Shown here one piece after another: positions 6,851-42,346 of a stretch of 42,603 nt of DNA. The position numbers and the translations under genes are program-made. Under the pieces are notes generated by a model that ran no database searches, was not told where the DNA came from, and worked only from the letters and a program-made list of their open reading frames with translations. How positions within the stretch are numbered: the stretch's first letter is position 1; each line of letters starts with the position of its first letter. The DNA comes from Nanobdellota archaeon. Its GTDB lineage: Archaea > Nanobdellota > Nanobdellia > Woesearchaeales > GW2011-AR9. Location: positions 1-42,603 of the forward strand of contig JBBSWG010000056.1 in the NCBI GenBank assembly GCA_038046425.1. Reading direction: 5' to 3'.

Positions 6851-6964
6851 AAATCCCAATCGCCCCAAGGGGCGGGGTATCTTATTAGTTGGGATTTTCA
6901 ATGTTGCAAATACCCTTGAATGGTTTTTCAACCCAACCACCTCAAGAAGTGGGGTATTTGCAAC
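6849..6964. other. two strong hairpins immediately after the surface-protein stop codon
   Basis: GAAAATCCCAA (6849-6859) pairs with TTGGGATTTTC (6889-6899), with an inner CGCCCC/GGGGCG stem. GTTGCAAATACCC (6903-6915) pairs with GGGTATTTGCAAC (6952-6964). Their function (terminator, processing site or sRNA) is unknown. Confidence 0.4.
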
Positions 6965-7017
6965 AAATAAAAGTATCAGAAACATTTAAATAAAGAGGCG
7001 CCTTGTTGAGAAGCAGC

Positions 7018-7802: not shown

Positions 7803-8120
7803 TCACGTCAAAATGAGGGCGGACCACCGGTCATAGACCGGTGGCATGCTCGCTTCGCTCGCCGCCCGCCCCATTTTGAGCGTGCTCAAAAATATACCGC
7901 CTAGAATTTCGCAGGTGGACTTTGTCCACCAGTCAATAGACTGGTGGTATATTTTTGACACATTAAAGATAGCCACACCCAGAACTTCAGGAGTATTTTG
8001 ACCCTTTCGTTCGAAAACACCGTCCTCAAGCTCCTCATAATACCCTTCTCGTGGTTCTCCTACCTGGAGCTCTAAATAATCTCCCGCTTCATCATAATAT
8101 AAGTGAAGGTTGCCTTTCAT
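7803..8120 (-). CDS. DUF2283-family protein whose 3' third is supplied by a MITE-like insertion
   Basis: The N-terminal 53 aa (MKGNLHLYYDEAGDYLELQV...VLGVAIFNV) fit the DUF2283 pattern (YDxEADxLYIxL ... GIEIxN). The remaining ~51 codons lie entirely inside repeat copy A (7807-7960) and end 2 nt beyond it. Confidence 0.6.
   Translation of the reverse strand: MKGNLHLYYDEAGDYLELQVGEPREGYYEELEDGVFERKGQNTPEVLGVAIFNVSKIYHQSIDWWTKSTCEILGGIFLSTLKMGRAASEASMPPVYDRWSALILT
7807..7960 (-). mobile_element. MITE-like structured repeat, copy A (154 nt, inverted relative to copy B)
   Basis: The reverse complement aligns end to end with 12502-12659. By manual alignment there are 6 substitutions (all transitions) and one 4-nt indel. 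Termini are TGTCAAAA...TTTTGAC(A). It contains internal hairpins CCACCAGTC-TATT-GACTGGTGG, GGTGGAC-AAA-GTCCACC and CCACCGGTC-TAT-GACCGGTGG. Confidence 0.8.
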
Positions 8121-12464: not shown

Positions 12465-12501
12465 GTAGGGGTGAGGATATTTGAAGATGATTAATTTAAT
12501 A

Positions 12502-12659
12502 TGTCAAAAATATACCACCAGTCTATTGACTGGTGGACAAGGTCCACCTGCGAAATTCTAGGTGATATATTTTTGAGCATGCTCAAAATGGGGCGGGTGG
12601 CGAGCGAAGCGAGCATGCCACCGGTCTGTGACCGGTGGTCCGCCCGCCCTCATTTTGAC
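12502..12659 (+). mobile_element. MITE-like structured repeat, copy B (158 nt)
   Basis: See copy A. This copy is intergenic and ends about 55 nt upstream of the ATG of the first cassette gene, whose TATA-like box CTTTATATA follows the element. Confidence 0.8.
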
Positions 12660-12715
12660 AGAAAGAGCTGAAGATAGAAATCTTTATATAGAGCGGTGGT
12701 TTAGTCCTGCCTACG

Positions 12716-13228: not shown

Positions 13229-13231
13229 ACT

Positions 13232-14032
13232 ATGGCAATCGAACAAGCCTTTGAACAGTTGGCAAAAGCGATCCTGAATTTCGTTAACTTTGGGATTACC
13301 ATACTGACTATCCTGCTGATCTGGGAACTGATTCGCCTGGTGATGGGGCCAAAGCCGGGAGAAGCGGCTAGTGCTGTCGGCAACCGTCTCACTGACTGGA
13401 AAAAAAGCCCGGTGCTGAAAGCAATCAAAAAGGGACGAGGACGCTGGAATACCAGAATGTTAAATGAATACCTGCAGGAGCAAAAAGAAACACAGTTCCT
13501 GAACGAAGCAGTAAAAGCCAGCCAGAATGCGTTGGCTGCAGTGGAAAAAGTACGTGGTGCTAAAGAAATAACCTCAGAAAAAGAGCGGGATGAAATGGTT
13601 AATGCTGTCGAGGAACTGGAAGCGCACCTGAAGGCAGTTAAACATCGCTATAGCCGCGTCAAGCGGGCAACATTCAGGCAGGAGCGGGCCCTGGAACCGC
13701 TCATTAAAAAATGGCGGGAAGCGGGGAAAGATGTTCAAGAATTGATTGCCCTGGAAAATAACCTTCTCAAGCTTCATAAAGAGTGTCTGGCAGAAGTGGA
13801 TACAGTGATGAATCACTATGGAAGATTAGATGGGCATCTTAAAGTAGTGAAGTCCTATCCGAGCTTTCCTATTGCTCTCTCCGGAAGCCCACTAGAAACT
13901 CCATTAAAAGAAATGCAGAATAATCTCCAAGATGAAGTCTATGAATTAGAGGAGATTTACAAAAAGCAAGTGGAGATAGATAAAGAGGTCCAGGCGATAA
14001 TTTCTAAAGTTAAGCCCCTCTGGTCAGCATAA
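13232..14032 (+). CDS. cassette protein B1: N-terminal TM anchor plus long coiled coil, unknown family
   Basis: It starts 3 nt after the A1 stop. The TM helix FVNFGITILTILLIWELI is followed by about 200 aa of heptad-like, K/E-rich sequence. It is a paralog of 14668..15417. Confidence 0.65.
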   Translation: MAIEQAFEQLAKAILNFVNFGITILTILLIWELIRLVMGPKPGEAASAVGNRLTDWKKSPVLKAIKKGRGRWNTRMLNEYLQEQKETQFLNEAVKASQNALAAVEKVRGAKEITSEKERDEMVNAVEELEAHLKAVKHRYSRVKRATFRQERALEPLIKKWREAGKDVQELIALENNLLKLHKECLAEVDTVMNHYGRLDGHLKVVKSYPSFPIALSGSPLETPLKEMQNNLQDEVYELEEIYKKQVEIDKEVQAIISKVKPLWSA

Positions 14033-16971: not shown

Positions 16972-17096
16972 GATTATTATGAGTAAAGATTGTTGTGGGT
17001 AAAGGTAGTGAAGCTAATAAGCAAGGCGAGGGAACGTGGCTACCAAAAACTATCTCTTGAAGTATCACTCCAGTAACCTGAAGTACAACTAAAAAA

Positions 17097-17441
17097 GGGC
17101 ACAATCCATTTTGTGAGTGATTTCCTGAACAACGCCGCCGCCCGTGCCAAGAGGTGAGCCGAGCGGTGGTGGTTACGGAGCTTTGTTCACCAGTTCCACC
17201 GCTTTTGAATAAGACTATGATTATACGACGATAGACGCAGCGAGCGGTGGCGAGGCTCACGGCACAGGCGGCGTTGTTCGGAGGGAAGGGCACTATCGGC
17301 TCGCTCTTGGCATGTATTTTCTGACTGTGGCGCCTCCCCGGATGGGGCAACCCCCTCCACAGAATAATGTTGATTCTGATACTATCGCTCGCATCTTGAT
17401 AGTGCCCTTCCCCCGAAATCACTCACCTTTTGGATTGTGCC
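17097..17441. ncRNA. candidate large structured RNA (345 nt, three-way junction), identity unknown
   Basis: The closing stem is 17098-17108/17431-17441 (11 bp) plus 17113-17124/17415-17426 (12 bp), separated by a 4x4 U-rich internal loop. Arm 1 is closed by 17127-17139/17267-17279 (13 bp). Arm 2 is closed by 17283-17297/17398-17412 (15 bp perfect). An A6 run at 17091-17096 gives T6 right after the element on the minus strand. Only an implausible 185-aa antisense ORF overlaps it. Confidence 0.4.
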
Positions 17442-17495
17442 TAAAAAAGGAAAGATTTTAGAACTAGTCCCTCTTTTCTAAGTATTGATGATGGC

Positions 17496-20526: not shown

Positions 20527-20808
20527 ATGACACCATTTAAAATCATCCACCATAAGCAGGACTGCATCAGCTGCGGCGCTTGTGCGGCGATCCAGCCCGA
20601 ATTTTGGGAGATGGATGAACGGGGCTTGGCGCATTTAAAGAGTTCGGTACCGGTGAACAGCCATTGGGAACGGTCCATCAGCACGGAAGAAGAGCGTGCG
20701 GCAAACCAGGAAGCAGCGGATTGCTGTCCGGTAAATATTATCAAAGTGGAGAATTTTGCAAAGCAAAATTCTCCAGCGCGGAGAGAGGGGGGACAATTAA
20801 CACAGTAA
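20527..20808 (+). CDS. small [4Fe-4S] ferredoxin; the C-terminal tail probably runs into a repeat element
   Basis: CISCGACAAIQPEFW ... AADCCPVNII. The last ~20 codons (ENFAKQNSPARREGGQLTQ) are read from palindromic hairpin repeat copy 2. Confidence 0.7.
   Translation: MTPFKIIHHKQDCISCGACAAIQPEFWEMDERGLAHLKSSVPVNSHWERSISTEEERAANQEAADCCPVNIIKVENFAKQNSPARREGGQLTQ
20748..20774. repeat. palindromic hairpin repeat GGAGAATTTTGC-AAA-GCAAAATTCTCC (copy 2 of 3)
   Basis: 12-bp perfect stem. Together with the flank CAGCGCGG it is the reverse complement of copy 1 plus its flank. Confidence 0.7.
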
Positions 20809-26476: not shown

Positions 26477-27304
26477 TTACCCCTGACACTTCTTACACCA
26501 CCACGTCCCCCTTCCTCCGATCTTCACTTTTTCGGTCGGATGTTTCCGCGGACATCTTTCTTTCCCATACACTGCCAGGAACCGCTGAAAGCGTCCCGAA
26601 CCCTCCAGACTGGTGTAATTTTCAATGGTTGTCCCGCCCTGCTTAATCGCCAGACTGAGAGTAGACTGGATGGACTGATGCAGTTTCTTGATTTCTCTCT
26701 CGGTAAGCGTTTCCACGGTGCGCTGCGGAGCTATTCCCGCACGATAAAGCGCTTCCTGGGCATAGATGTTGCCCAAGCCTACCAGCACCCGTTGATCTAA
26801 CAGCGTGCTTTTAATGTTCGCCCGGCGTTTCTTCTGCAGCAGTTCGTGAAACTGAGAATAGGAACAATCTAACGGCTCTGGCCCTAACGAAGAAAGCATG
26901 GTGGGAATCATTCTTGCTGGTACTGCCACCATCCGGCCAAATCGCCTGATTTCATTGAACGTGAGCGTAGTGCCATCCTGAAAATGAAAGGTCGCGGCAA
27001 CGTATTTGTTGGGATCCTTCCGCTCCCGCTGCTCTTTCTGCTTCCACTTCTTTTCTTGATACTGGAAATGCCCGCTCATCCGTAGATGGGTCAGCAGGAC
27101 ATTATGGTGGCCCTGATTGTTATCTAAATATATTAAAATATACTTTCCCCGACGGGAAATCCGTTGGATGGTACTGGGAATGACCTGCCGGATGGTCTTA
27201 TCCACCACTTTCCGGTCTCTTATTTCTACTGCTTTGATGGTCTTCCCCTGGATTGAACGCTGCAGCTGCCGGACAATCGTTTCTACTTCGGGGAGTTCAG
27301 GCAT
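26477..27304 (-). CDS. mutM: formamidopyrimidine-DNA glycosylase / endonuclease VIII (Fpg/Nei family)
   Basis: The MPELPEVETI N-terminus carries the catalytic Pro2/Glu3. An H2TH region is present (NIKSTLLDQRVLVGLGNIYAQEALYRAGI), with a C-terminal zinc-finger-like CPRKH...GRGTWWCKKCQ. A K/E-rich insertion (QEKKWKQKEQRERKD) is present. Confidence 0.85.
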   Translation of the reverse strand: MPELPEVETIVRQLQRSIQGKTIKAVEIRDRKVVDKTIRQVIPSTIQRISRRGKYILIYLDNNQGHHNVLLTHLRMSGHFQYQEKKWKQKEQRERKDPNKYVAATFHFQDGTTLTFNEIRRFGRMVAVPARMIPTMLSSLGPEPLDCSYSQFHELLQKKRRANIKSTLLDQRVLVGLGNIYAQEALYRAGIAPQRTVETLTEREIKKLHQSIQSTLSLAIKQGGTTIENYTSLEGSGRFQRFLAVYGKERCPRKHPTEKVKIGGRGTWWCKKCQG

Positions 27305-27373
27305 GGTTTCACCACTCGACGTAATTATTCAGCGCTAGGAAGCGGGGAGAGCACCCTAATGTCGAAACTATCG

Positions 27374-27455
27374 GTGAAGCGAGGGCGGGTACGTGAGCGA
27401 GCCAGAGGCGAGCTCTGGCAAGTCAGCGGCGAGCTCGCAGCCGCCCTCGCTTCAC
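27374..27455. repeat. GC-rich stem-closed module (82 nt) sharing its stem sequence with the module at 30688-30838
   Basis: GTGAAGCGAGGGCGG (27374-27388) pairs perfectly with CCGCCCTCGCTTCAC (27441-27455). The interior contains GCCAGA/TCTGGC and the GCGAGCTCGC palindrome. Confidence 0.6.
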
Positions 27456-27514
27456 GATCCAAATAATCACCCTCAAACACAACATATATAAACATTTAGG
27501 GAAAGCGTCAAGGA

Positions 27515-30155: not shown

Positions 30156-30464
30156 TTACACAAACTCTACTTTTTTTGTTCGGATGCCATAGGGCTGGGC
30201 CGTGGACTTATTGCAGGTGGTGCAGGTATATCGCCAATCGGTCTTTTTCGTTGCTTTTGCTCCGGTGCGTTTCCATTTAGTGATAGCCGGCTTGGAATAA
30301 CGGCCTAAATTACCAATACCACGGGCTTTTCCCCGCAACCGGGCGCGATACTTTGATCCTCGGCTCAGTGAACTGGGCTGCCGCTTTTTAGTCTGGGCGA
30401 CTTTTTGGTCGGTATGCTTCCGGCAATATTTACAGTAGCGGCGGATAGTTTTAGGGATTTTCAT
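30156..30464 (-). CDS. rpl44e: 50S ribosomal protein L44e
   Basis: MKIPKTIRRYCKYCRKHTDQKV...YTCTTCNKS. I trimmed the start to the Met at 30464, because the track ORF runs a further 147 nt into the structured intergenic element. TTTATAAA lies 27 nt upstream. Confidence 0.9.
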   Translation of the reverse strand: MKIPKTIRRYCKYCRKHTDQKVAQTKKRQPSSLSRGSKYRARLRGKARGIGNLGRYSKPAITKWKRTGAKATKKTDWRYTCTTCNKSTAQPYGIRTKKVEFV

Positions 30465-30490
30465 TACTAGCGTCCCGCTCTGATAATTGT

Positions 30491-30498
30491 TTATAAAT
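30491..30498. promoter_or_regulatory. palindromic TATA box TTTATAAA between rpl44e and the structured modules
   Basis: It lies 27 nt from the rpl44e ATG on the minus strand and about 33 nt from the first base of module 1 (30531) on the plus strand. Confidence 0.5.
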
Positions 30499-30530
30499 GT
30501 TTCTAAAAAATGTAATACTTCACTATCTTG

Positions 30531-30838
30531 AAGCGGAGGGCTGGCTTGGCCAAGATGGCGAGGCGAGAACTGGTGTCTCGTCAGAGGGTGTGGTAGGTGC
30601 TCCACCGCCAAGCTGGAAGCGAATATTCAGCGAATCCTGAAGTAATTGGAGCACTCGCCGAGCGGCCTGTCAGCCCTCCGCTTCCCAGGAAGCGAGGGCG
30701 GCGCCGGCGGGCTCGCCGCCGCTGGCTGTTTTCCCGCAGCAAATCTGTTCGTGAAACGAAGAAGCGGCGGAACAGACGGACGAAGCCTCGTAATTGGTGC
30801 AGCTCGCCCGCCTCATTGGCGGCCGCCCTCGCTTCCTA
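30531..30838. ncRNA. two adjacent GC-rich stem-closed modules (155 nt and 151 nt); candidate structured RNA or MITE-like pair
   Basis: Module 1: GAAGCGGAGGGCTG (30531-30544) pairs with CAGCCCTCCGCTTC (30672-30685), 14 bp. Module 2: AGGAAGCGAGGGCGG... (30688-30706) pairs with ...CCGCCCTCGCTTCCT (30819-30838), 15 bp perfect and extendable. Both interiors contain further nested helices (for example GTGCTCC/GGAGCAC, GGCGGGC/GCCCGCC, CTGTTC/GAACAG). No credible ORF overlaps. Confidence 0.45.
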
Positions 30839-30904
30839 CTTCAGATTGTTGAAGTATTACCCGCCAGCACAAGATTTATAACATCTTTCTCCACCATTCC
30901 CGGA

Positions 30905-32872
30905 ATGAAGAAGATTATTTGGAGTACCTTGTTCCTCCTCTTTGCAGCCATCCTCTATGCCGATCCGCTTTACCTCGCCGATTCCCTGGTGCTTGAACTC
31001 AATGTCCAGGGCAGCTTTGATTTAATTGCCGAGAAACCAGCAGCCAAACTGCAGGAAGTCACCGCGGACCTCTTGCTCTTTCCCCAGATCGATTTCCGGC
31101 AAGAGCTCGTGACGATGGAAACAACGGGCCAGCGACAACAGAATAAGGTTGCGTTTGCTTGGAATGATCAAGCCATCGAAGGAAAGAAGTTTGGCTATTC
31201 CGCTCAGGTCCGCACCCAGAATAAACGGGTTACCGTATCACAAAAAAATTTCTTCCCGCTTTCTCCGGCTGAGATTCAGGGATTTGAGCAGTATCTTCAA
31301 CCCACCACAACGATTGACTCTAATGACCAGACCATAATTGCCCAAGCCACTAAACTGGCCGAGGGAGAAGACGATTTATTTAAAGTCGTCTTCAAAATTG
31401 CCAACTGGGTGGACGAGAACGTGAATTACGATTTAACGACTCTTACGGCGGAAACCTCCCAAAAAGCCAGCTGGGTCCTGGAGAATAAGCGTGGAGTCTG
31501 TGATGAAATGACCTCGTTATTTGTGGCCATGCTTCGCTCCCTGGGAATACCGGCGCGCTTTGTCTCGGGTGTGAGCTATACCACGTCCGATCTCTTTGAC
31601 TATCCCTGGCAGCCTCATGGCTGGGCGGAAGTATACTTCCCGGACATTGGCTGGGTGAGCTTTGATATTACCTTTGGCGAGTACGGCTACGTCGATGTCA
31701 CCCACGTCAAGCTGCGGGACGGGTTTGATCCCCAGGAACCAGCGACGAGGTTTGAATGGGTGGCTCAAGATGTTGATTTAAAGACGGAAAAACTAGAGGT
31801 TACCGCCCGCGTTGTCCAGCAGGGTCCGCCGGAAGAAGAAGAGGTACAGCTAGAGCAGGAGATCTTAACCGCTGAAGCGGGATTTGGTAGCTATAATCTC
31901 ATCAAAGGCATCCTGAAGAATAAAGCCAACTACTATGCTGCCTCGACATTGAAAGTTGCTGTCCCGGCGGAATTGGAGATTATCGGAAAAAATAAGCGGA
32001 CACTGCTGCTGGCACCCAAAGAAGTGCGGGAAACCTATTGGGTGGTCAAAGTACCGCCGAACCTGGATGAAAAGTTCATTTATACCTTTCCCGTTCTGAT
32101 GTACTCGGAAAAGAATGTTTCAGTGTCAGACCAATTTACCGTTCAGAGCGGAAAACAGTATTATTCCCAGGCGGATATTGAAAATCTCCTGGTGAAAGAT
32201 GAAGAAAAAACCTATTCGCGGAAAATCGCTTTTAGCTGTGATTATCCCCGGCAGATCAAACTGAATCAGCCGGCGAAAGTGCGCTGTATCGTTAAGAATA
32301 CCGGCAATGCTAATTTACAGGACCTCAACTTCTGTCTGGAGGGCGTGTGTGACCTTGTTGACCTTCCCATTAATCAGGAACAATCGGCCGCCATTACCCT
32401 GAAAGCAGACACGGTAGGTTGGAATAAAGTAATCGTCAGCGCAGAGAATGGTTTGGTGGAAAAAAAGTCGGTGTTGGAGTATCAGGTCCTGGACGATCCG
32501 CGGGTAACGGTAGTGATAGATTATCCGGAAACGGTAATTCTTGGAGAGAGTGTACCCCTCACTATCAAGGCCGAAAAAGCATCGTATAGTGAACCACGGG
32601 AGCTGGTCATCATGATTAAAGGGCTGGCTCAACAGCATAAAATTGAAGTGGAGGCGCTGGAGAAAGACCACTCTTTTCAGTTGGAGCTCAATAGTCAGCG
32701 TTTAACTCATTCTAACTGGCTTCAGGTAACCACGACTTGGAAGGATCAGGAAGGGGAAAGCTATGCGAGTCAGCAGATGATTCTTATCCGGGGAGAAGCG
32801 GCTGGTCCGGGCGGGAAATTAAGGCTGTGGTGGAATAAGGTGGTGGTGCTGCTGTATGGACAGAGGGGGTAA
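30905..32872 (+). CDS. secreted transglutaminase-like cysteine protease-fold protein with CARDB-like C-terminal domains
   Basis: I trimmed the start to the Met at 30905 (signal peptide MKKIIWSTLFLLFAAILYA). The core is GVCDEMTSLFVAMLRSLGIPARFVSG...HGWAEVYFPDIGWVSFD (Cys-His-Asp). TTTATAA lies about 30 nt upstream. Confidence 0.8.
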   Translation: MKKIIWSTLFLLFAAILYADPLYLADSLVLELNVQGSFDLIAEKPAAKLQEVTADLLLFPQIDFRQELVTMETTGQRQQNKVAFAWNDQAIEGKKFGYSAQVRTQNKRVTVSQKNFFPLSPAEIQGFEQYLQPTTTIDSNDQTIIAQATKLAEGEDDLFKVVFKIANWVDENVNYDLTTLTAETSQKASWVLENKRGVCDEMTSLFVAMLRSLGIPARFVSGVSYTTSDLFDYPWQPHGWAEVYFPDIGWVSFDITFGEYGYVDVTHVKLRDGFDPQEPATRFEWVAQDVDLKTEKLEVTARVVQQGPPEEEEVQLEQEILTAEAGFGSYNLIKGILKNKANYYAASTLKVAVPAELEIIGKNKRTLLLAPKEVRETYWVVKVPPNLDEKFIYTFPVLMYSEKNVSVSDQFTVQSGKQYYSQADIENLLVKDEEKTYSRKIAFSCDYPRQIKLNQPAKVRCIVKNTGNANLQDLNFCLEGVCDLVDLPINQEQSAAITLKADTVGWNKVIVSAENGLVEKKSVLEYQVLDDPRVTVVIDYPETVILGESVPLTIKAEKASYSEPRELVIMIKGLAQQHKIEVEALEKDHSFQLELNSQRLTHSNWLQVTTTWKDQEGESYASQQMILIRGEAAGPGGKLRLWWNKVVVLLYGQRG

Positions 32873-36014: not shown

Positions 36015-36050
36015 TTCTGTGCCTCTTTCTCCTTAGAAAAACAATAAATA

Positions 36051-36058
36051 TTTATATA
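36051..36058. promoter_or_regulatory. TATA-like box TTTATATA between the SpoIIM-like gene and the hairpin-array element
   Basis: It lies 37 nt upstream of the ATG at 36014 (minus strand) and about 33 nt upstream of 36091 (plus strand). Confidence 0.4.
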
Positions 36059-36090: not shown

Positions 36091-36332
36091 TGAAGCGCCA
36101 CCAGCATCCTAAGGTCAAAACTCCTACGAGTTTCAGAAGCCGGCGCGTTGCGGGGGGTTGCCCCCTACGGTATCGAAAAGCGAAGCTTTTCGGGACACAC
36201 AAAAAGCATAAGCTTTTTGGTGCCCCGGAAACTTCGTTTCCGTGGACTTCCGAAAATCCCCGGGATTTTCGATAGGGACGCAGTGCCTGCGGAAAATAAA
36301 GCCAGAGTTTTGAAGATGCTGGTGGCGCTTCA
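36091..36332 (+). ncRNA. stem-closed array of six consecutive hairpins (242 nt); candidate structured RNA or 5' leader
   Basis: The closing stem TGAAGCGCCACCAGCATC (36091-36108) pairs with GATGCTGGTGGCGCTTCA (36315-36332), 18 bp perfect. Internal hairpins lie at 36152-36166, 36174-36192, 36200-36219, 36226-36242, 36251-36271 and 36279-36291. An alternative 12-bp pairing, 36309-36320 with 36361-36372, competes with the closing stem just upstream of the ATG at 36389. Confidence 0.4.
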
Positions 36333-36388
36333 CGGGAAGCGAGGAGAGCACCAATACCAGAGCATCTTCAAATCTCAAGGGGGGAAAC

Positions 36389-41357: not shown

Positions 41358-41849
41358 ATGGTTGTGTTGGATAGCTCATCACTCATCCTGCTGGCTAAGA
41401 CTGGTCTATTGGATCTTTTCCTCGCCCAGTTAAAAGAGAGCCCCGTCATTCCGTCAGCGGTATACGAGGAAGGAGTAAAAGCAAAGCGGGCCGATGATGC
41501 TTTCCTGATTAAAGAGAGAGTTAAAGACGAGAGGATACTGATCCATCAATTAAGCGACCACATACTTAGCAATAAATTGAAGCACGATTTCAACCTCGGG
41601 CTCGGAGAGGCAGAGGCAATTGCCCTTTGCCTCCAAAATAAAGCAGTACTCATAACTGACGATAAGAAAGCTATAAGCACGTGTAAGATCTTAGGAATAG
41701 AGTTTGTCACCGTACCGAATATAGTGGTTGAACTCTATCGGAGAAAGATTATCCAGAAACAGGAAGCGGAAGTAGTAGTGAAAAAACTTCAGCTTTATGG
41801 ACGATATTCCGTCAAAATCATGGAAAAAATCAAAGAGGATTTACTATGA
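41358..41849 (+). CDS. PIN-like nuclease domain protein (DUF3368 type), putative toxin
   Basis: VVLDSSSLILLAKTGLLDLF...GLGEAEAIALCLQNKAVLITDDKKA. It overlaps the next gene by 4 nt. Confidence 0.7.
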   Translation: MVVLDSSSLILLAKTGLLDLFLAQLKESPVIPSAVYEEGVKAKRADDAFLIKERVKDERILIHQLSDHILSNKLKHDFNLGLGEAEAIALCLQNKAVLITDDKKAISTCKILGIEFVTVPNIVVELYRRKIIQKQEAEVVVKKLQLYGRYSVKIMEKIKEDLL

Positions 41850-42151
41850 GCACCATGCAAACCGTGATATCTCTACGATTACCAAAAGAAGATCTTACGC
41901 TCATTGAAGAGGTAGCTTCGTGGAAGAATAGCGATAAAAGTACTGCTATTCGGGAGCTGGTGGAACTGGGAGGAATTTACTTTGCTGTTCTTGAATACAA
42001 AAAGGGAAAGATATCAATAGAAAAAGCGGCGGAACTGGCGCACCTCTCTCTTTCCGAGATGATTGATCTACTTGCCTCTTTAGGGGTGGAAAGCAAACTA
42101 GAGATTGAAGATTACTTGGAAGGCGCTAAAACGGTAAAGAAGCTGTTCTGA
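41846..42151 (+). CDS. UPF0175-family protein, putative antitoxin partner of the PIN protein
   Basis: The C-terminal KGKISIEKAAELAHLSLSEMIDLLASLGV matches the UPF0175 helix-turn-helix-like core. The N-terminal part looks RHH-like. Confidence 0.6.
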   Translation: MSTMQTVISLRLPKEDLTLIEEVASWKNSDKSTAIRELVELGGIYFAVLEYKKGKISIEKAAELAHLSLSEMIDLLASLGVESKLEIEDYLEGAKTVKKLF

Positions 42152-42346
42152 ATAATGGAGGGTTATTTTTTATGTTTAGCAGGGGATTAATTTGGAAAGG
42201 GGGGACGGTCTGCGCTGCTAAACTCTCCGAACGGAACGAAGCGAAGGGAGAAGCGTAGCGTCCCTGAGCACCGCAGACCGCAGTCGAGGAGCGGAGATGA
42301 CGCAGGAACCAGCACTAACATAAGAGAAAGTGATTTTTCTTTGATT

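Follow-up and report, generated by a model that had tools for sequence, protein, structure and literature searches.

A probable MITE-like family of nested palindromic repeats in the genome of a groundwater Woesearchaeon

The window analysed here is a stretch of 42,603 nt of DNA, and the contig to which it belongs derives from a groundwater Woesearchaeon, a DPANN archaeon. The top homologues of the transglutaminase-like protein encoded at 30905-32872 are labelled Woesearchaeota or Nanoarchaeota, identical contigs are contained in assemblies from the Hainich aquifer, and the locus is surrounded by archaeal housekeeping genes, namely rpl44e, rps27e, and the genes for eIF2-alpha, fibrillarin, Nop5, the proteasome alpha subunit and RadA. 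The region of interest separates two divergently transcribed genes. To its left is rpl44e, whose gene call ends with the ATG at 30464 on the minus strand and whose product matches Pfam Ribosomal_L44, and to its right is the transglutaminase-like gene, which starts with an ATG at 30905 on the plus strand and has a Pfam Transglut_core match. No transposase domain is encoded within the 42.6-kb window or the 2 kb beyond its ends. Several other features of the window can be noted. A DUF3368 (PIN-like) gene overlaps a UPF0175-family gene at 41358-42151, forming a toxin-antitoxin-like pair, and at the window end a direct repeat (ATGGGGTTTTGAGAAGTCGCCGCCACTCG..., at least 60 nt long) flanks about 1.9 kb containing a TrmB-like regulator. 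Further GC-rich hairpins are seen in the same region (42190-42300 and about 42640-42760; L021:11280-11400 and 13230-13282), which could represent a different repeat family or mark where an integrated element ends. Lastly, an imperfect 21-nt inverted repeat with a perfect 14-bp core (6895-6972) is situated immediately downstream of a 930-aa ORF, and a perfect 13-bp palindrome with a 3-nt loop is present at 20747-20775; both of these could be terminator-like hairpins.

The coordinates of the features at the rpl44e locus and of its relatives in the window are collected in Table 1. A preliminary description of the locus reported two tandem stem-closed modules upstream of rpl44e, and both are there, with perfect closing stems of 14 bp for module 1 (30530-30543 with 30671-30684, GAAGCGGAGGGCTG) and 16 bp for module 2 (30687-30702 with 30822-30837, AGGAAGCGAGGGCGGC). 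The element as a whole extends further than was then proposed, with the two modules enclosed by an outer imperfect inverted repeat of 22 nt that is 77% complementary and whose left arm holds a local 5-bp hairpin (CTTCA at 30518-30522 with TGAAG at 30529-30533). The left edge of the repeated unit is position 30512, as marked by a step in contig depth and by loose ends. The right outer arm is not common to other copies at an identity of at least 80%, and AGAAAGCTAAATAATTAC is found there instead (loose end at 30835). The GC content reaches 0.62 within the modules compared to about 0.45-0.53 nearby, in line with the earlier remark that the locus is far richer in GC than its surroundings. The segment 30525-30845 folds at -166 kcal/mol on the plus strand (z = -6.0) and at -158.6 kcal/mol on the minus strand (z = -6.6), both relative to dinucleotide shuffles. 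The window contains nine perfect inverted repeats with arms of 13 bp or more that lie within 400 nt, against a mean of 0.27 and a maximum of 2 in 200 dinucleotide-preserving shuffles, and the excess over chance that had been roughly estimated before is thus confirmed. From this excess, the perfect stems and the fold z-scores of about -6 taken together, it follows that the modules are real and not products of chance. The elements contain no believable ORF, with one 48-aa ORF call present as a singleton in a protein collection, and a six-frame chimeric query for paralogous ORFs gave no match.

Table 1. Coordinates of the rpl44e-locus element, the TATA boxes beside it, and related elements of the window
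Feature	Position	Strand	Description
Left outer arm	30512-30533	.	GTAATACTTCACTATCTTGAAG; inverted repeat I7, pairing with 30839-30860
Module 1	30530-30684	.	155-nt GC-rich hairpin module
Module 2	30687-30837	.	151-nt GC-rich hairpin module
Right outer arm	30839-30860	.	CTTCAGATTGTTGAAGTATTAC; local CTTCA..TGAAG hairpin
TATA box (predicted)	30491-30498	minus	TTTATAAA; 13 nt outside left arm, ~30 nt from rpl44e ATG
TATA box (predicted)	30875-30882	plus	TTTATAAC; 14 nt outside right arm
Module 3	27374-27455	.	82-nt hairpin
Sister composite element	17099-17440	.	Outer arms and two hairpins, layout as at the rpl44e locus
Further family member	36091-36332	.	242-nt stack of perfect sub-hairpins
End/arm sequences of the elements			GTAATACTTCAC, GGCACAATCC

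A predicted TATA box is found on each side of the element. The preliminary description had recognised the left one, a palindromic box at 30491-30498, and had assigned to it the start of module 1 transcription; the box is present, but it fits rpl44e on the minus strand. Given its distance of about 30 nt from the rpl44e start it is most simply the promoter of that gene, probably giving a near-leaderless mRNA, and it need not serve the modules as a promoter. The right-hand box (30875-30882) is, again judging by its position, the probable promoter of a leaderless transglutaminase-like gene. The same arrangement recurs elsewhere, with element ends 13-15 nt from the boxes at 30491-30498, 30875-30882, 27485-27492 and 36050-36057, and the flanks of other copies show the same TATA spacing. 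All of them have a flanking gene that starts some 27-30 nt away, the right spacing for a promoter, and most simply they are predicted promoters of near-leaderless flanking mRNAs. The fpg start codon, at 27304 on the minus strand, is only 15 nt from the arm GTAATTATT (27320-27329), and a TATA-like box of fpg thus appears to be inside the AT-rich arm; this repeat may supply the fpg promoter.

Within the window there are several relatives of the rpl44e-locus element. Module 3 has a perfect 15-bp stem (27374-27388 with 27441-27455, GTGAAGCGAGGGCGG) and degenerate outer arms at 27320-27337 and 27456-27470, and in other copies its core has GTAATACTTCACTATTCTGAAGCA in front. The 13-mer GAAGCGAGGGCGG that the preliminary description noticed in both module 2 and this 82-nt hairpin occurs exactly at only four places in the window, all of them arms within the stems of these two modules. 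The sister composite element has imperfect outer arms at 17099-17124 and 17415-17440 (85% complementary over 27 nt when taken as 17098-17124 with 17415-17441), and these enclose modules at 17127-17279 (153 nt, 13-bp stem) and 17283-17412 (130 nt, 15-bp stem). The sequence CTAAAAAAGG is present as a direct repeat on both of its sides (17089-17098 and 17441-17450). The member at 36091-36332 is closed by a perfect 18-bp stem, TGAAGCGCCACCAGCATC, that starts with TGAAGCG; in other copies this core is preceded by GTAATACTTCACTATCC, and many of these carry interior deletions. The left flanks at 27320, 30512 and 36073 are alike, following the pattern GTAAT.A.TTCA......GAAGCG, and the ends that the family has in common consist of an AT-rich outer arm of the GTAATACTTCAC type and a GAAGCG stem base. 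The elements of the window are strictly intergenic and the family covers about 3-4% of it.

Three further observations concern sequences near these elements. The segments 7807-7967 and 12500-12660 are two copies, inverted relative to each other, of a further palindromic element that is rich in GC and about 160 nt long (TCAAAATGAGGGCGG...), the first of which was called a MITE in the preliminary description. An unpaired 18-mer, GGAAGCGRGGAGAGCACC, adjoins two different modules (at 27338-27355 and 36335-36352, with 17 of the 18 positions identical), and no complementary partner for it is present in the window. In the left flank of the sister element (17040-17098), degenerate arms of the GTAATACTTCA type stand alone (CTTGAAGTATCAC and CTGAAGTAC), and these look like remnants of older elements.

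The abundance of these elements was gauged by mapping the Logan contigs from seven metagenome runs of groundwater to the loci; each of these runs contains at least 69% of the sampled words of the locus. In all seven, the summed contig depth rises about 10-60 fold inside the elements, with steps exactly at their borders. Run X1 illustrates this, with a depth of 12-15 in the flanks and about 196 inside the rpl44e-locus element (30512-30860), 12-16 and 612 for the module 3 core, about 15 and up to 945 for the 17099 element, which has sharp edges, about 17 and 353 for the 36091 element (20-35 times its flanks), and about 13 and 473 for the 7807 element, which is likewise multi-copy. Module 1 is at about 10-15 times the depth of its flanks across the seven runs. 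For the module 3 core a depth of 444-688 against 9-16 in the flanks suggests some 40-50 copies, a figure that, like all copy numbers given here, comes from Logan contig word depth and is a rough measure. The additional contigs match the depth of the host contig in every run and the depths co-vary across runs, so the simplest reading is that tens of copies reside in one genome; the data point to tens of family copies per genome in the host population. The arms of the 17099 element still reach a depth of 220-756 at an identity of at least 97%, which points to a recent expansion of the family. Short-read contigs of the host end inside or at the elements, and we note that, these being repeats, short-read assemblies of this organism break at such positions.

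Comparison of the copies reveals that the elements are modular. The segment 17128-17282 is exactly absent in some copies, with GG in its place, and module 2 has a shortened interior in others (joints 30693>30769 and 30734>30802); many skip joints are found at the 17099, 30687 and 36091 modules. There are also chimeric copies, in which the 5' part of the 17127-17279 module is followed by the module 1 interior (loose end at 17163). The arm GTAATACTTCACTATC fronts both module-3-like and 36091-like cores in other copies of the same population, and one type of outer arm fronts three different core types. The proposal that the family is defined by its terminal inverted repeat is thus supported by the recurrence of GTAATACTTCACTATC before other cores, and by a sister element of the same architecture. 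The accompanying claim that the interiors are all unrelated does not hold. The module 2 interior is homologous to 17140-17266 in reverse orientation (local alignment z = 11.2 against shuffles), and 26 of 31 positions agree when the 3' interior of module 3 is compared with the 5' interior of module 2 in reverse complement. When 17127-17279 (plus strand) is set against 30687-30837 (minus strand), 9 of the 30 consensus pairs are kept by two-sided changes; that is, paralogous cassettes keep their helices through compensatory changes. Because both strands fold equally and the stems are Watson-Crick palindromes, this upkeep is not assignable to the RNA of one strand, and it is compatible with a role for the hairpin as single-stranded DNA or as RNA.

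Direct evidence of mobility is available for the sister element. A 3369-nt contig in runs X5 and X7 contains a joint, 17088>17441, that skips 352 nt and at which 10 letters fit both sides. The skipped sequence corresponds to the 342-bp element together with one copy of CTAAAAAAGG, and the empty allele has a single CTAAAAAAGG. The empty-site contig has a depth of 15.7 in X5 and 8.12 in X7, which come from two different studies, and in both runs the filled junction (17056-17127, on a 72-nt contig) is present beside the empty allele. The element at 17099-17440 is therefore mobile; its insertion is segregating and has given rise to a 10-bp target-site duplication. Polymorphic empty sites, which in the preliminary description would have made the elements plain MITEs, accordingly exist at this member (in X5 and X7), but none was seen for 30512-30860 in the seven runs. 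Nor was an empty-site allele found for 27320-27470, and at neither 30512-30860 nor 27320-27470 is there a target-site duplication, with the flanks sharing no direct repeat of 5 nt or more. At the rpl44e locus synteny breaks exactly at the element (30465-30905) relative to four related sequences, L006, L007, L009 and L010. In the Woesearchaeon studied here the genes rpl44e-rps27e-eIF2alpha adjoin the transglutaminase-like gene, and in the relatives tRNA-Glu or other genes do.

The modules are absent upstream of the transglutaminase orthologues in all four of these relatives (L006, L007, L009 and L010; the four orthologues have 76, 75, 70 and 65% protein identity), so that conservation in orthologous intergenic regions, a possibility raised at the outset, is not borne out; no long inverted repeats were found over 13 kb of the relatives' sequence. 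The upstream region is occupied by a tRNA-Glu with insertions in three of the four. In these tRNA-Glu(UUC) genes (L006:20-215 and L007:2650-2900, both on the minus strand, and L010:1-35) the D-loop, the T-loop and the anticodon region are interrupted by insertions, and the interrupted gene escapes ARAGORN; after brute-force removal of two segments the program calls a tRNA in 1618 of 7344 trial splicings, the commonest anticodon being TTC (755). In wider searches, a 23-mer from the module 1 core matched only a bacterial coding region among GTDB species representatives, an arm-plus-stem pattern gave only four chance matches in JGI metagenomes, and three element patterns returned nothing from IMG/VR. 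No copy of the inverted termini, which had been thought worth seeking more widely, was found in these three collections. The family is lineage-specific, and a literature search found no published description of it.

Matches to known RNAs were sought as well. The preliminary description left room for a known Rfam family, but there were no matches at the gathering threshold in the whole window, and at E < 10 the four loci gave noise only, the best being microRNA-precursor models on generic hairpins. ARAGORN found no tRNA, and no T-arm motif is present at the modules. We also considered a bulge-helix-bulge intron or a split tRNA, reading both strands by eye. The perfect closing stems are free of bulges and are therefore not bulge-helix-bulge splice sites, and about 45 nt are left after removal of the modules. 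Pairing in trans through the 18-mer GGAAGCGRGGAGAGCACC yields no tRNA-like product, and comparison by eye with the motifs of SRP RNA, RNase P RNA and 5S rRNA gave no match.

We consider it likely that 30512-30860 is one copy of a multi-copy, lineage-specific, non-coding family of nested palindromic repeats, MITE-like in its nature and a BIME/REPIN-like mosaic in its construction. Of the candidates put forward in the preliminary description, MITE-like palindromic elements are thus favoured, and structured sRNAs are disfavoured by the lack of an Rfam match and by the absence of the modules in four relatives. The plan of an element would be a pair of AT-rich GTAATACTTCAC-type outer inverted arms placed around one or two hairpin cassettes that are rich in GC and have GAAGCG at the start of their stems. 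The rpl44e copy would have arrived as 17099-17440 did, through the action in trans of a transposase whose gene lies elsewhere in the genome. Situated 13-14 nt behind the TATA box on either side, it would fill the one neutral stretch that this compact pair of divergent promoters offers. More generally, the elements would persist nowhere but in the short neutral gaps that separate divergent promoters standing back to back, although insertion may instead be targeted to the vicinity of TATA boxes. The missing target duplication and the broken synteny of the rpl44e copy would be best explained by recombination between two copies, which is conjecture, or by age. Retention of the perfect stems is probably due to a role of the hairpin, formed in single-stranded DNA or in RNA, in propagation or stability, and frequent slippage and deletion would trim the interiors. 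Several observations sit less easily with a MITE, including the lack of an empty-site allele (in seven runs) and of a target duplication at the rpl44e copy, the similar situation at 27320-27470, and the lack of a transposase in the window and the adjoining 2 kb. In addition, a classical DDE-type MITE does not need compensatory upkeep of its internal helices, which fits a functional RNA or hairpin-dependent single-strand transposition equally well.

Movement as single-stranded DNA is the foremost alternative, although we regard it as doubtful. Here the elements would be mobilised not by a cut-and-paste DDE enzyme but by an HUH/Y1 transposase, in the manner of REPINs and RAYTs or of IS200/IS605 elements and PATEs, with the GC-rich stems and the small subterminal CTTCA..TGAAG hairpins acting as recognition structures. 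It would account for both GTAAT-arm copies in the window (30512-30860 and 27320-27470) being without target duplications, and it is consistent with the small hairpin that each arm has of its own, with the mosaic of nested palindromes, and with the compensatory helix upkeep between paralogues; changes of a like kind are reported to have been seen in REPINs by Bertels and Rainey in 2011. However, the long imperfect terminal inverted repeats and the 10-bp duplication of 17099-17440 are not products of Y1/HUH enzymes, and neither a GTAG or CGTC tag nor a conserved target tetranucleotide is found beside the ends. The same stable folds (z about -6) and compensatory changes between paralogues could instead reflect structured sRNA genes transcribed from the adjacent TATA boxes, either a multi-copy RNA family or an RNA serving the spread of the elements themselves. 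The boxes 13-15 nt outside the element ends at 30491, 30875, 27485 and 36050 would suit this, as would the minus-strand TTTTTTAG directly after the outer arm at 30503-30510 and 17090-17097. Yet each TATA box is already accounted for by a near-leaderless flanking gene, the T-run at 17090-17097 belongs to the duplicated target, and perfect Watson-Crick palindromes that fold equally on both strands carry no strand signal; with the failure to match Rfam, the orthologous locus of the relatives without modules, and copies that vary by the presence or absence of whole modules, by interior deletions and by insertion polymorphism, an RNA gene family seems distinctly unlikely.

The position of the elements, always between divergent promoters and at a fixed 13-15 nt from the TATA boxes, and their dyad symmetry, would also be expected of operator-like sites at which a regulator controls the promoter pairs rpl44e/transglutaminase, fpg/bPH and spoIIM/orf98. 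But 150-340 nt of nested hairpins is much more than protein binding would require, the genes on either side have unrelated functions, and the copies are polymorphic and absent in relatives, and we give this explanation very little credence. A bolder proposal is that these are archaeal REPIN-type replicators that spread through a single-stranded or RNA intermediate under selection on the fold, and that are placed preferentially 13-15 nt behind TATA boxes bound by TBP and TFB. We hold this to be improbable. If it were true, the preferred placement would amount to promoter-targeted integration, of which we know of no description in archaea.

Returning to the MITE-like repeat family that we favour, only the fixed promoter spacing and the compensatory hairpin upkeep go beyond an ordinary MITE. 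For annotation, the rpl44e locus and those at 7807, 12500, 17099, 27320 and 36073 are to be treated as repeat elements and not as sRNA genes or ORFs. The family illustrates that an active and modular set of palindromic repeats can exist in a DPANN genome of small size, and since both alleles of one insertion (17099-17440) still coexist in the aquifer population, this insertion could be used to mark strains.

The elements share features with several known systems. PATEs are derived from IS200/IS605 elements in archaea and cyanobacteria, are without long terminal inverted repeats, and have ends in common with an insertion sequence carrying tnpB. The elements described here resemble them in being archaeal and non-autonomous with hairpin ends and without target duplication, and differ in that no tnpB-type partner and no conserved target tetranucleotide were found. 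The Correia elements of Neisseria and the Rickettsia palindromic elements are about 100-150 bp long, abundant in small genomes and situated beside promoters, and can affect their neighbours; the former are single fixed units with a TA duplication, and the latter often insert in frame into genes. The likeness is in the abundance of palindromic repeats adjacent to promoters, whereas the hosts and sequences are different and the elements in the window are all intergenic.

REPINs and BIMEs, which are doublets and mosaics of REP sequences mobilised by RAYT transposases in bacteria, are comparable in that palindromic hairpin units are arranged in mosaics, are intergenic and of high copy number, and undergo compensatory hairpin upkeep, and in that the GTAAT-arm copies lack a target duplication. 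RAYTs are to our knowledge bacterial, and no RAYT (Y1 transposase) gene is present in the window. REP units are of 20-40 bp with a GTAG or CGTC tag (PMC3733652); in contrast, the units here are of 80-240 nt, their stems begin with GAAGCG with no adjacent GTAG/CGTC tag, and one of the elements, the sister element, is bounded by terminal inverted repeats and flanked by a target duplication. MITEs provide a further comparison, and a Woesearchaeal genome is among the MITE-densest archaeal genomes in a published census, with 105 per Mb (PMC11602168). Like MITEs, the elements are small (about 80-350 bp), non-coding, bounded by terminal inverted repeats, intergenic, taxon-restricted and present in tens of copies, and one member (17099-17440) has both a 10-bp target duplication and a polymorphic empty site. 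Unlike MITEs, they have an interior made up of GC-rich hairpin cassettes, nested and perfectly paired, which are exchanged, lost or truncated from copy to copy and whose pairing is preserved by compensation, they have no known parent insertion sequence or transposase, and the rpl44e copy shows no target duplication. The elements are best explained as a new family of a known type, MITE-like nested palindromic selfish DNA.
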